A stretch of 64,000 nt of DNA, taken from positions 544,001 through 608,000 of the forward strand of contig CAVRAG010000008.1 in assembly GCA_963718895.1 (NCBI GenBank), in the 5' to 3' direction. The notes beneath the pieces were generated by a model that did not search any database, was not told the DNA's origin, and was given only the letters and a program-made list of their open reading frames with translations. This document shows positions 1,219 to 30,788 of this stretch, piece by piece (within the stretch, counting starts at the first letter, position 1; each line of letters opens with the position of its first letter). The translations under genes were made by a program, and so were the position numbers. The DNA is from an uncultured Nitrososphaerota archaeon (GTDB lineage: Archaea; Thermoproteota; Nitrososphaeria; Nitrososphaerales; Gagatemarchaeaceae).

Positions 1219-1390
1219 TATCGATCGTATCCACATAGGGTTCTGTCAGGTCTTCGTCGGACGGCTCAGACCTGGCTTCGAGGCATCGACTCTGAGGATT
1301 ACCTGCTGTTTCCTGCCTTCAGGGTTCCCCTTCACCGCTTCAACTGCCCCGCCTTCTCCTCTTGACTGGGCGAACCTCACCCAGCCCCTG
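1219..1390 (-). ncRNA. Predicted omegaRNA (reRNA) overlapping the tnpB 3' end, running through the right TIR into the flank (candidate guide CTATGTGGATACGATCGATA)
   Basis: Nucleotide blocks conserved with 30285-30415 (TGAGGTTCG, AAGGCGGGGCAG, GGTGAAGGGGAACCC, GTAATCCTCAGAGTCGATGCC, CGAAGCCA, GACAGAACC), where no tnpB gene remains. The position is typical of TnpB guide RNAs; boundaries are approximate. Confidence 0.55.
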
Positions 1391-2581
1391 CGGGAGATGT
1401 TCATCACCGCGACCAGGTCGCGGTCATCCCACCGACCACACCTCTGGCACCACTGCTGCCGGTGATGCTGCAGATCACCGCGGACAGCCGCTTGGAGTCC
1501 CTCCCCGCATCGCGGACAGCCCGTCGTGGTGTCTCTTGTCTCCTTCACCGTGAGCGTGACCACCGGCACGCCCTCCCACGCCGCCTTGTACTCGACTTCT
1601 CTCTTCAGCTCGCCGAAGGGCCAGGAGTTCATCCTTCCCCTGAGTTCTCGACCCTGGAGGTTCTCTCTCCGGTACAGCTTCCTTAGGCCCCTGATCTCTT
1701 CGAAGACGATCGCGCGCCTGTCTCTCTTGGCTTCTTCCACGATGTGCTTCGAGACGCGGTTGAGGATCTGCCTGACCCGCTCCTGTCTCCTCCGACCGTA
1801 CTTGATGGCCAGCGGTCTCCTTACTCTTACATCGTTTCTCTTGAACGAGCGGATGATGCTCCTGGTGTTCTCCGCTATCTCCACCGCTTTCGAGATGTCG
1901 TAGTATGTGACCTTCCCCTCGTTCCCCGCCGTCACGTTTCGCAGGTTCCTATCGATGCCGGTGGCGTCAGTGACCTGGATCCATTCCACAGCCTTAGCGA
2001 TGCAGAGCGAGAGCGAGCTCTCCGTGACGGTAAAGGACCGAACGACGACGCCGGGCTGGGTTAGGATGCTGAGCGTGTGCGGAGTTAGAGGGACCTTCTC
2101 AAACTTACGTCTCCGACGGGCACGAGGAGGCCATCGCCATCGATTCTGAACCCATAGCATGATGTGAGCAGAGGCTTCGAGAGGTAGGGCCGCCTTGTGC
2201 GGAACCCCCGCCTGATGGATTTCCTTCTCGCCGCCAGGATGCCGGTCGCTTTCGAGATCGCGCAGAGCCGGTAGTACGACGGGATCTCGCTTCCGTACCT
2301 CCCGCTGAGATCTTGGTAGACGAGGAGCGGGAGCCTCTTCAGTGAATGCGCATCCTTCTCCAATCCTACCCGTATGCAGTCGTTGACCATGAGCCTGAAA
2401 GTTTCCATGAGGCCGAAGAGACGGAACGTAGGCTCGTGTCGCTGCTTGAGGGCCTTCCTGGCGACCGTTCCAGGTGCAAGAGCGGCGAGGCTCATGCGGT
2501 ATCAAGTAGGAGAACCATATAAGCACCCGGTTGCCGATCTATCCTGAGAGAACGTCACCCCGACGAAGACTTTACAGAGCC
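1239..2581 (-). mobile_element. Non-autonomous TIR element (IS6-like ends) carrying tnpB
   Basis: 22-bp imperfect TIRs (19/22): GGTTCTGTCAGGTCTTCGTCGG at 1239-1260 and the reverse complement of 2560-2581, GGCTCTGTAAAGTCTTCGTCGG. Flanks CCACATAG / CCAGATGG (6/8 direct repeat). No transposase inside. Confidence 0.8.
1246..2495 (-). CDS. tnpB: RNA-guided endonuclease TnpB (one frameshift near 2100)
   Basis: N-terminal ORF 2085-2495 plus C-terminal frame with RuvC-I GIDRN, RuvC-II VFEEI, Zn finger CPRC...CQRC and RuvC-III DRDLVAVMNI; TATA-like TTATAT about 25 bp upstream. Confidence 0.9.
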
Positions 2582-29641: not shown

Positions 29642-30113
29642 TCACCTTATGACCAGGACGGAGCAGTGTGCGTGGGAGACGACTCCGGTGGAGACGCTTC
29701 CGAGCAGGAGCTTCTTGAAGCCGCCCAGTCCTCGGGTCCCCATTACGATCAGATCCGCTTTCTCCCTCTCCGCGAACTCAACGATTGCGCCGACCGTGGA
29801 AGCGACAGGTTCGATTACCTCACCCCGGGCATCCACTCCGGCTTCCTTGGCAAGAACCAGCGCCGAGTCGATCGCGCGTCTTAGCCTCGGTTGTTCCGAG
29901 CTTGTAGTACTCGGTCAGGTCAGCCGGCGCGCCTGCCGGGCCGCTGAAAGAAAATCCAGGTGAGGCGACGACGCTTAGAACGACGACCTTTGCGTTGTAC
30001 GCGCGGGCAAGCTCGAATGCGATCTTGGCGGACCTCTCCGCCGACTTGGAACCGTCCACGGGCACTAATATCAAACGCGTCGTGATACCCTCGTTCGCCT
30101 TGGTTGCTTGCAT
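29642..30113 (-). CDS. uspA: Universal stress protein (frameshifted)
   Basis: ILVPVDGSKSA ... ADLIVMGTRGLGGFKKLLLGSVS...HAHCSVLVIR. Confidence 0.9.
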
Positions 30114-30166
30114 CCCAAACACCGTGCACCGCCGCCGGCCTGACGTATTTAAGGGAAGAAGGCGAA

Positions 30167-30415
30167 GGCTCTGTCAAGTCTTCGTTGGGTAAGGGTGGGC
30201 GCTTGAGTATGCTCTCAGCATGTTGTATCCGAGCAGTGAGGACGGGTCCCGGGCGAATCCGTCTGACCCATTGGCAAGATGGGCGGTTGAGGTTCGACCG
30301 TTCATTGAAAACAAGGCGGGGCAGGTGAAGGGGAACCCGACGCGGACCGTAATCCTCAGAGTCGATGCCCCGAAGCCAAGTCTTTTTGGTTACCCGACAA
30401 AGACTTGACAGAACC
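30167..30415 (+). mobile_element. 249-bp MITE with IS6-like TIRs containing only the omegaRNA-like region
   Basis: 26-bp TIRs (23/26): GGCTCTGTCAAGTCTTCGTTGGGTAA / reverse complement GGTTCTGTCAAGTCTTTGTCGGGTAA. Flanks AAGGCGAA / AAGGCGAG (7/8). Interior homologous to the tnpB 3' end at 1239-1385. Confidence 0.85.
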
Positions 30416-30524
30416 AAGGCGAGGATAGGAAAGCGCACTGCGGCAATGCGGGCTGTTCCATGGAGCGGTGACGGGGCGGCGTGTGAGCCTAACTTAAATA
30501 GAAGCGCCGCTGTCTCCCTTCAAT

Positions 30525-30788
30525 ATGAAGACCAGCCCCTTCGTCGGCACAAGTCAGCTCCAGCAGCTTGCAGTTTCAAGGTCGCTCGACGCGCCTGGCA
30601 TGAAGAAGAGGGTGGCTGAAGCGACCAGGCCTTTGGCTGTCAACATCTCTCTGGTCCAACCGGTCACCGAGACGAGCACAAAGCAGACGAGCTCCACCGC
30701 TCTGGATCAATCAAAGACTCTCGAGCAGGCCAATGCAGCCTCGCCGAAGGTGGGCTTCGGGCTTTCCAGCCAGTTTCTCGAGCTCTGA
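30525..30788 (+). CDS. Small hypothetical protein
   Basis: ATG about 25-30 bp downstream of TTAAATA; low-complexity S/T/Q-rich; no family recognised. Confidence 0.35.
   Translation: MKTSPFVGTSQLQQLAVSRSLDAPGMKKRVAEATRPLAVNISLVQPVTETSTKQTSSTALDQSKTLEQANAASPKVGFGLSSQFLEL

Follow-up and report, generated by a model that had tools for sequence, protein, structure and literature searches.

A gene-less IS6-type element that probably retains the omegaRNA scaffold of a tnpB passenger in a Nitrososphaerota archaeon

Background

TnpB and its guide RNA are mainly understood as helpers of the IS200/IS605 and IS607 transposons, which excise scarlessly. Neither of these groups has TIRs or TSDs, according to the survey given in a review (PMC13565253). 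Gene-less IS605 derivatives, named PATEs, carry omegaRNAs that are served in trans by TnpB, thus the idea of such a cassette is already published (Meers et al. 2023, PMC10055086). As described there, PATEs have hairpin ends without TIRs or TSD and are moved by the Y1 transposase TnpA beside a fixed TAM. A further line of work placed TnpB within DDE transposons with inverted repeats, forming six branches (Altae-Tran et al. 2023 PNAS, PMC10691335). The main text of that study names IS630 (branch DDE-6), not IS6, the supplements may list IS6; the later review gives ISL2, IS630 and IS1031 as TnpB-associated DDE families (PMC13565253). Marks of the IS6 family (IS26, IS257, IS240), of which archaeal members exist, are 8-bp direct repeats, short TIRs, GG tips, a cTGT motif and a DDE_Tnp_IS240 transposase (Varani et al. 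2021, PMC7986276). The family overview of that review reports that ISfinder lists only two MITEs and a single passenger-carrying member, and mentions neither tnpB nor a fixed distance to TATA-like boxes, the latter unlike the elements described below. In eukaryotes and viruses, the Fanzor nucleases (eukaryotic TnpB) and their RNA ride DDE transposons that have TIRs and make TSDs (PMC13565253).

The element studied here, M1, is 249 bp long and lies in a 64,000-nucleotide stretch of a Nitrososphaerota genome, referred to as the window. Like the PATEs, it has no protein gene, keeps both transposon ends and the omegaRNA region, would need TnpB and a transposase in trans, and would have its guide defined by the right-end flank (PMC10055086). 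It differs from them in its TIRs of 23-26 bp, the 8-bp TSDs, the IS6-type ends, the archaeal host and a promoter-like box fused to the scaffold. With the DDE-associated branches its family shares the location of tnpB in inverted-repeat elements, with the tnpB 3' end within 250 bp of the transposon end, and the common ends of solo and transposase-bearing copies; the description of those branches contains no MITE derivative, unlike the present case (PMC10691335). Compared to the Fanzors, the vehicle belongs to another transposon superfamily and resides in a prokaryotic genome. No paper linking TnpB to IS6 came up in the literature search, and no description of an insertion preference at the side of TATA-like boxes was found either. 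As read from the sequence, three points are new here: the IS6-type vehicle, a scaffold fused with a promoter-like box, and a preference for targets on the promoter side. We regard it as probable that M1 is an internal-deletion MITE of the IS6 type which kept the TIRs, a promoter-like box and an omegaRNA scaffold of about 185 nt, and that tnpB had been a passenger of the parent element.

Results and discussion

Anatomy, copies and empty site

An earlier note on this DNA, made from the letters alone, had described a 249-bp MITE with 23/26 matching TIR positions and a 7/8 TSD, and direct reading bore out these values; the TIR identity was obtained by comparing the left end with the reverse-complemented right end. 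The following features were located (window positions; + is the forward strand, a dot means no strand assigned).

30146 to 30152, dot: TATA-like box of the host, TATTTAA, separated from the TSD by 6 nt
30159 to 30166, dot: TSD, left 8-bp copy AAGGCGAA, 7/8 against the right copy
30167 to 30415, +: MITE copy M1, 249 bp, non-autonomous IS6-type element (sequence, BLASTN)
30167 to 30192, +: left TIR, GGC end, GGCTCTGTCAAGTCTTCGTTGGGTAA, IS6-like with GG tip and CTGT motif
30193 to 30209, +: promoter-like box GGGTGGGCGCTTGAGTA, read from the sequence, putative in function
30238 to 30266, +: hairpin H1, GACGGGT...ATCCGTC, at the position of the RuvC-III-codon hairpin in tnpB relatives, helix 1 of the 36-sequence fold
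30281 to 30303, +: hairpin H2, the best-conserved core, GGGCGGTTGAGGTTCGACCGTTC, helix 2 of the 36-sequence fold
30317 to 30323, +: long-range helix (helix 4), 5' arm CGGGGCA, within block AAGGCGGGGCAG
30323 to 30324, +: site of an 8-nt deletion (GGTGAAGC missing), in M1 only, which takes out part of helix 5
30366 to 30372, +: long-range helix (helix 4), 3' arm TGCCCCG, within block GTCGATGCC
30377 to 30407, +: terminal hairpin (helix 7) CAAGTCTTT...AAAGACTTG, its 3' arm inside the right TIR
30390 to 30415, +: right TIR, GGT end, GGTTCTGTCAAGTCTTTGTCGGGTAA, inverted match to the left TIR
30416 to 30423, dot: TSD, right 8-bp copy AAGGCGAG, 7/8 against the left copy
30416 to 30435, +: predicted guide AAGGCGAGGATAGGAAAGCG, from TnpB biology, provided that the RNA is transcribed with read-through

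Both junctions of M1 were confirmed by short DNA contigs from read run X2, in which other copies were visible too; a joint across an empty site was not present among the short read-derived DNA contigs. In the orthologous intergenic region of the sister genome G001 the element is absent, and the flank matches lie 52 nt apart versus 314 nt here. The flank on the side of the neighbouring usp-like gene and the downstream flank are adjacent in G001, thus M1 is an insertion.

The earlier note had proposed a collection of all genomic copies as a check, and M1 proved not to be a single copy: BLASTN revealed four full-length copies in the host genome with 86-100 % identity, the other three being

M2, C4:191798-192054, 96 % to M1, perfect 8-bp TSD
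M3, C8:385683-385939, 93 % to M1, perfect 8-bp TSD
M4, C8:877640-877894, 86 % to M1, no TSD

Twelve copies of 249-271 bp, falling into three subfamilies, were obtained from three genomes of the genus; full-length matches among the genomes of 60 relatives were limited to G021, with 6 copies, and G003, with 2. Many tnpB ends were matched by the 3' part of the MITE, and of the 22 genomes of the genus 16 contained some match. Ten of the 12 MITEs had a TSD scoring 6/8 or better (8/8 in five, 7/8 in three, one of these by eye, and 6/8 in two); for the 16 elements with clear TIRs, MITEs together with full-length elements, the TSDs were 6-8/8. The reading frame of the MITEs is broken by 8-nt and other indels, leaving no gene. 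A TIR scan of the host genome with up to 6 mismatches returned the four MITEs and the full-length relative P only, while a family HMM recognized nine scaffold modules: M1 to M4, P, T1 and T2, the latter three with tnpB, the 468-bp deletion derivative T3 and the 165-bp fragment T4.

IS6-type transposon ends

The TIR tips GGCTCTGTCAAG / GGTTCTGTCAAG possess the GG tips and an internal CTGT, and the part corresponding to the 'caaa' motif reads CAAG. A TIR pattern scan of four sister genomes led to an autonomous element in G001 (L052/L058), which is 3250 bp long, has the TIRs GGCTCTGTCAAGTCTCCGTCGG and GGGTCTGTCAAGTCTCCGGCGG and is flanked by an 8/8 TSD, TCGAGAAG. It encodes a 433-aa protein (L052:1941-3242) with the domain PF13610 DDE_Tnp_IS240 (1.4e-15, 58.1 bits, cut-off 27), besides an ArsR-type HTH protein and two further ORFs. 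A homologue of this transposase is encoded in G022 on a 2645-bp element (L065) with the TIR GGTTCTGTCAAGTCTCCGTCGGA and an 8/8 TSD by eye; the TIR has 1/23 mismatch to the right ends of several sister-genome tnpB elements and MITEs, and 3/23 mismatches to the right end of M1 itself. In G012, a further homologue is located in an element with a TIR of the GGTTCTGGTAA type, as in T1, and homologues were present in 19 of the 22 other genomes of the genus. These partner elements have a size of 2.6-3.3 kb, extra ORFs and a transposase of about 400-430 aa with an N-terminal cysteine-rich extension. From the IS6-type TIRs and TSDs, together with IS6 transposases enclosed by near-identical TIRs, it follows that the tnpB elements and the MITEs are non-autonomous elements of the IS6 type; judged by its ends, M1 is a non-autonomous member of the IS6 (DDE) family and not an IS200/IS605 element. 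The earlier note had missed the IS6-type nature of the ends (DDE transposase, 8-bp TSD).

The host assembly G000 is 80.5 % complete, and a TIR scan with up to 6 mismatches and tblastn detected no autonomous IS6 element with the MITE TIR in it. The sole IS6 transposase in this assembly belongs to an 800-bp IS (C1:30553-31352, TSD 8/8), in which 12 of the first 13 TIR bases are identical to the MITE. The L052 transposase had no match in the MITE-bearing genome G021 and a fragment only in G003.

Relation to the tnpB elements

Within the window, the family is represented by a full-length relative on the other strand.

1239 to 2581, -: full-length relative P, 1343 bp, same TIR family, 6/8 TSD, carries tnpB
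1246 to 2495, -: tnpB of P, PF07282, 4.2e-13

The earlier note's view that M1 and P have TIR family and polarity in common was confirmed by BLASTN, which aligned positions 115-249 of the MITE with the terminal 149 nt of P in reverse complement (72 % over 153 columns); in both, the RNA lies at the GGT end and away from the GGC end. M1 contains the three conserved blocks and the two upstream hairpins that the note had listed, and its proposed derivation from the tnpB element family, with the gene lost and a structured RNA kept, is supported. The extent of the retained part had been given too short, as about 130 nt: the tnpB homology begins at the RuvC-III-codon hairpin (H1), so that the tnpB-derived part comprises about 185 nt (approximately 30230-30415) and extends into the RuvC-III coding region, and the left 65 nt of M1 also retain the promoter-like box of the parent family.

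In the full-length relatives, the right TIR contains the stop codon of tnpB and also forms the 3' terminus of the scaffold. TnpBs from elements with a MITE-type TIR end in ...PTKT, their ORF entering the right TIR and stopping at a TGA within it. Because the tnpB ORF runs into the right TIR, the conserved blocks also encode the TnpB tail. Intact homologues in relatives have 410-430 aa and all end in ...KGN...ILRVDASK...; one of them, the L051 TnpB, matches the solved Cas12f and ISDra2 TnpB over RuvC-II, zinc finger and RuvC-III. The search for TnpB relatives yielded 2476 proteins at E <= 1e-20, with many intact ones in related MAGs, and the source names of the close relatives are Nitrososphaerota/Thaumarchaeota MAGs, including Ca. 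Gagatemarchaeum.

All three tnpB loci of the family in the host assembly are frame-disrupted, each at a different place; the tnpB of P lacks one base at about 2111 in comparison to an intact homologue of 81 % identity, and the other two loci are located at C7:139.5-140.7 kb and C7:547.7-548.9 kb. The usp-like gene beside M1 is frameshifted at 29881, and an independent contig of run X1 lacks one base there and reads intact. Since the frameshift is absent from that contig, indel errors in the assembly are plausible, and they are possibly the cause of the disrupted tnpB frames. In contig C8, 76.5 % of the initial 600 kb is still taken up by open frames of at least 200 aa.

Fold and covariation of the RNA scaffold

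Thirty-six element 3' ends of 195 nt each were aligned, consisting of 13 gene-less copies or fragments and tnpB-linked ends. From the full gapped alignment RNAalifold recovered just the long-range helix, and from a 23-sequence subset seven helices. Scored on all 36 sequences, this fold had 92.0 % of 1549 cells paired, against 81.1 % in shuffles and 28-43 % with slid partners; the comparison with slid partners is biased towards the fold, as 23 of these 36 sequences had been used to derive it. Changes on both sides were observed for 25 of the 47 pairs (16.9 in shuffles, a count of 25 reached by 0 of 500), and the covariation score was 0.274 versus 0.118. The long-range helix joins two of the blocks of the earlier note, pairing CGRGGCA (in AAGGCGGGGCAG) with TGCCYCG (in GTCGATGCC); among its pairs one is CG in 27 and GC in 8 sequences, one GC in 27 and CG in 8, and one AU in 14, GU in 10, UA in 5 and CG in 3. 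Five pairs of H2 showed compensatory change among the 36 sequences. The terminal hairpin is variable, with all 7 of its 7 pairs changed on both sides, compensatory between subfamilies. The compensation in H2 (CGGT/ACCG, TGGG/CCCA, CTGGT/ACCAG) alters the encoded amino acids R/W, L/V, D/A and R/Q/H, and in the long helix a serine codon swap from TCG to AGC is mirrored on the opposite arm. Judged by these substitutions, compensatory change overrides coding. The single-sequence fold of 30230-30415 was only weakly better than shuffles (z = -1.99). Rfam families gave no hit anywhere in the window at gathering scores, and over 30100-30480 none up to E = 10 either. By its alignment and fold, the interior of the MITE is a structured RNA region, the putative omegaRNA scaffold, which in full-length relatives overlaps the tnpB 3' end and which terminates at the right tip.

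The strand is indicated by near-invariant G-U pairs: pair 62/85 is GU in 31 sequences and pair 68/79 is UG in 30, followed by 158/223 (GU in 34) and 168/214 (GU in 33). Frequent G-U pairs are restricted to the tnpB-sense strand, whose RNA is thus indicated; the other strand would have C-A mismatches at these positions. The same pairs speak against hairpins that act as DNA, be it as sites for the transposase or a host factor or as single-strand hairpins like the ends of IS200/IS605. Covariation by itself cannot separate RNA from DNA, and IS200/IS605, the usual home of tnpB, does use subterminal DNA hairpins (PMC13565253). Yet the ends found here are TIRs with 8-bp TSDs, a DDE-type transposase requires TIRs only, and the Y1 TnpA (PF01797) was encoded in 1 of the 23 genomes of the genus and not in the host assembly. 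A function of the hairpins at the DNA level is accordingly considered very improbable.

Conservation in the absence of the gene

A more serious alternative, which we nevertheless hold to be rather unlikely, treats M1 and its kin as dead internal-deletion derivatives, that is, mobilisable junk in which the blocks reflect tnpB descent, recent spread or gene conversion, and no selection acts on an RNA. It draws on the coding content of the blocks, which specify the conserved TnpB tail G(G/E)AVEA(V/M)KGN...ILRVDASK, on the low copy numbers of 2 to 6 per genome, on the lack of an intact tnpB in the host assembly and on the mutated boxes of M1 and M4, which also have indels. Furthermore, compensatory pairs within the MITEs alone did not exceed shuffles: 4 double-change pairs compared to a shuffled mean of 4.0, a number reached by 317 of 500 shuffles. 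Most stems are invariant within the 12 MITEs, and the MITE-only alignment (MAFFT) misaligned subfamily C around the long-range helix.

Against decay stands the distribution of identity between the MITE subfamilies. H2 is conserved at 0.91-0.98 and H1 at 0.79-0.88, together 79-98 %, whereas the left TIR, which is needed for transposition, reaches 0.61-0.68; the right TIR is at 0.79-0.86. The other segments range over 0.25-0.83 (0.61-0.83 for 147-165), and the neighbours of H1 and H2 at 25-73 % are exceeded by both hairpins. Such a mosaic is hard to reconcile with neutral decay. Despite the loss of the reading frame, 94 % of cells are paired in the MITE-derived fold of the 12 copies, and 99 % in H1 (helix 2 of that MITE-only fold). 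Subfamily C has its own variant of helix 4, GGCCTGCA paired with TGCAGGC, and a tnpB parent for this subfamily was not found in the 41 genomes searched. The selection on RNA structure suggested by the earlier note is thus indicated by the family-wide covariation and the mosaic identity, and not by covariation among the MITEs, which stayed at the shuffled level.

The promoter-like box GGGYGCTTAAGTA to the left of the scaffold is another point that decay does not account for, being kept in 10 of the 12 MITE copies; apart from M1, it reads TTAAGTA, TTAAGTG or TTAATTA in 9 of 11. In four full-length relatives (L021, L027, L028, L033; by eye) TTAAATA or CTAAATA is positioned exactly 20 nt before the ATG of tnpB, a spacing typical of leaderless archaeal genes. 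The homologous TTAAGTA of the MITEs is located 28 nt before H1, hence the same spacing would place the start about 8 nt before H1. The placement of box and scaffold gives the MITE the order TIR, promoter-like box, scaffold, TIR.

M1 itself departs from this pattern. Its box is TTGAGTA, an A>G change with respect to the other copies; GGTGAAGC, one unit of a direct repeat, is absent from M1 alone; and in helix 6 a CCG in place of CGG (G>C) breaks one pair. The family HMM scored M1 with 145.5 bits, M2 with 168.9 and M3 with 157.3. With a mutated box, 8 nt of a helix deleted and one pair broken, M1 is probably an impaired member of a family whose scaffold has been retained.

Insertion beside TATA-like boxes

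Target sites were analysed for the 16 elements whose TIRs were clear and whose TSDs scored 6/8 or better. On the left-end side, an A/T run of at least 6 was present within -18 to -4 of the TSD at 13 of 16 sites, and a run of at least 5 at 15 of 16; background values were 1.3 % genome-wide and 4.0 % outside long ORFs for the longer run, 3.9 % and 9.6 % for the shorter one (binomial p between about 1e-14 and 1e-22). The distance from the end of the run to the TSD is 3-8 nt. Full-length tnpB elements share this preference with the MITEs, and the autonomous element of G001 has the same TATA-like arrangement from one of its ends, so that the preference is to be seen as a property of the transposase rather than a selected function of the MITE. 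The three nucleotides before the TSD are TTG, TGA or TTA at 9 of 16 sites, without a strict TAM motif. Added MAG contigs made 5 of 15 loci analysable and contributed no new clear TIR/TSD site.

The TATTTAA at 30146-30152 is most likely the promoter of the usp-like gene, which reads leftward, away from the MITE, and has its GTG start 23 nt from the box. The gene downstream of M1 retains a box of its own, TTAAATA (30494-30500), with a distance of 24 nt to the ATG at 30525. Across the sites, ORFs of at least 50 aa starting 16-45 nt past the box were found on the far side in 13 of 15 cases and on the element side in 5 of 15, a soft test in a GC-rich genome. The neighbouring boxes were also considered as host promoters firing into the element; this was rejected on the fit of the M1 box to the usp-like gene and the commoner far-side ORFs. 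Insertion thus seems to take place immediately upstream of promoters and to leave them intact.

An insertion at such a place could have been co-opted for regulation, with the MITE serving as portable promoter or structured 5' leader that alters the expression of a neighbouring gene. The insertion 3-8 bp from TATA-like boxes and the outward-facing promoter-like box would suit this function, and hybrid promoters formed by members of IS6 have been described (PMC7986276). However, both neighbours of M1 retain their own TATA boxes, the target preference is equal in tnpB elements and the autonomous IS6 element, and the insertion sites differ between genomes, none being common to two of them. We attribute a very low probability to this explanation.

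Proposed mechanism and guide function

For the favoured reading of an IS6-type MITE with a retained scaffold, the following course may be envisaged. Internal deletion of an IS6-type element with a tnpB passenger would have created the MITE, which an IS6 transposase could move in trans. Transcription from its own promoter would begin near 30230, some 20 nt past the box, and proceed over the right tip; the adjoining 16-20 nt of the flank, beginning with the TSD copy, would thereby become the guide. TnpB of a full-length relative might take up this RNA and cleave the same site wherever it is unoccupied, and the cutting would favour copying of the insertion.

It is plausible that the dispersed MITEs form a guide repertoire used in trans. 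Counted against an active repertoire are the few copies (four MITEs, one other deletion derivative and one fragment), the disruption of all three tnpB frames in the assembly, the three lesions of M1, and the number of compensatory pairs among the MITE copies, which was no higher than in shuffles. A second exact target of the guides was not found in the genome, with AAGGCGAGGATAGGAAAGCG matching only itself.

IS6 transposition is thought to be replicative, thus the classical role of TnpB, to restore the excised donor, is not directly applicable. A wider proposal, which we put forward tentatively and regard as unlikely at present, is that IS6 transposons captured a TnpB-omegaRNA module, and that the insertion at promoter edges supplies the motif for TnpB and arms the guide against the element's own empty site. 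The transposase would read the promoter architecture and insert 3-8 bp from the TATA box on the upstream (BRE) side, a safe haven in which the host promoter is left intact. The insertion could then be driven into sister chromosome copies, despite the lack of an excised donor in IS6 transposition. The MITE would be the minimal form of such an element, a promoter-omegaRNA fusion between IS6 ends that depends on transposase and TnpB in trans.

Conclusions

A constant distance to TATA-like boxes would make these elements one of the rare archaeal examples of target choice directed by promoters, and it provides a testable connection between the choice of target and the TAM. Experiments can draw on the compact scaffold, whose fold has been mapped with support from covariation, and on the many intact TnpBs encoded in related MAGs. 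In this family, a TnpB module and its gene-less derivative appear to ride target-duplicating elements of the IS6 type, thought to be replicative, which raises the question of what use an RNA-guided nuclease is to a transposon that is not excised. A candidate role would be the drive into unoccupied chromosome copies, as it has been proposed for multicopy plasmids (PMC11870625).

IS6-family transposase in the genome and in a sister genome

The only source of IS6 transposase found in the genome carrying the window (G000) was an insertion sequence on another contig (C1), present as one copy. A sister genome (G001, contig C88) carries an autonomous IS6-type element.

G000:C1:30553-31352, outside the window: 800-bp IS6-family insertion sequence, terminal inverted repeat GGCGCTGTCAAGTTAAGG
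L052 1046-4295 (G001:C88): autonomous IS6-type element, 3250 bp

The 800-bp element is flanked by a perfect target site duplication (TSD; GTCGCTCA, 8/8) and contains an open frame of 232 aa in which the DDE residues are present. At 3250 bp, the L052 element is unusually large. In addition to its transposase gene, it has one for an ArsR-type HTH protein, together with ORFs of 149 and 194 aa that are both of unknown family.

Surroundings of M1 and a right-end variant

The gene-less 249-bp element M1 (30167-30415) adjoins a gene for a putative universal stress protein.

window 29820-30122, minus strand: usp-like gene

In the window assembly, this gene is split by a 1-nt frameshift around 29881. 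A contig from the DNA sequencing run X1 has one base fewer at this position, which would result in a single continuous Usp-like frame; this suggests assembly indel errors or else a strain difference. A right-end variant shortened by 4 nt was seen at a locus (L073) of a MAG labelled Ca. Gagatemarchaeum stordalenia, reading …GACAG followed by GTGGGATGCTCGC…; a run X1 contig, with a loose end at window position 30411, contains a near-identical form of it.

tnpB elements and their deletion derivatives

G000 contains a full-length tnpB element, P, and two scaffold-bearing remnants, T3 and T4.

window 1239-2581, minus strand: P, full-length element with tnpB
G000:C8:432174-432641, outside the window: T3, 468 bp, derived by deletion from a second tnpB subfamily
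G000:C8:511523-511687, outside the window: T4, solo 3' fragment, 165 bp

The TSD of P matches in 6/8 positions (CCATCTGG / CTATGTGG), a TATATTT box lies 8 nt from it, and one base is absent from tnpB at about 2111. In T3, the start of the gene region (first ~190 nt) is fused to the last ~200 nt; the element is bounded by a perfect TSD (8/8), and a TATA-like box is also present.

In a relative (L049, G003:C106), a tRNA-like sequence is located upstream of a tnpB element, in the left flank. Nineteen nucleotides of it are repeated in the right flank, after which the 3' part of the tRNA seems to occur a second time, in interrupted form. Judged from these flanks, the element may have inserted into one of two tRNA paralogues. 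Two elements of a tnpB subfamily without detectable TIR, L026 and L031, share a common right flank in two genomes (G009 and G018); this looks like an old insertion, inherited vertically.
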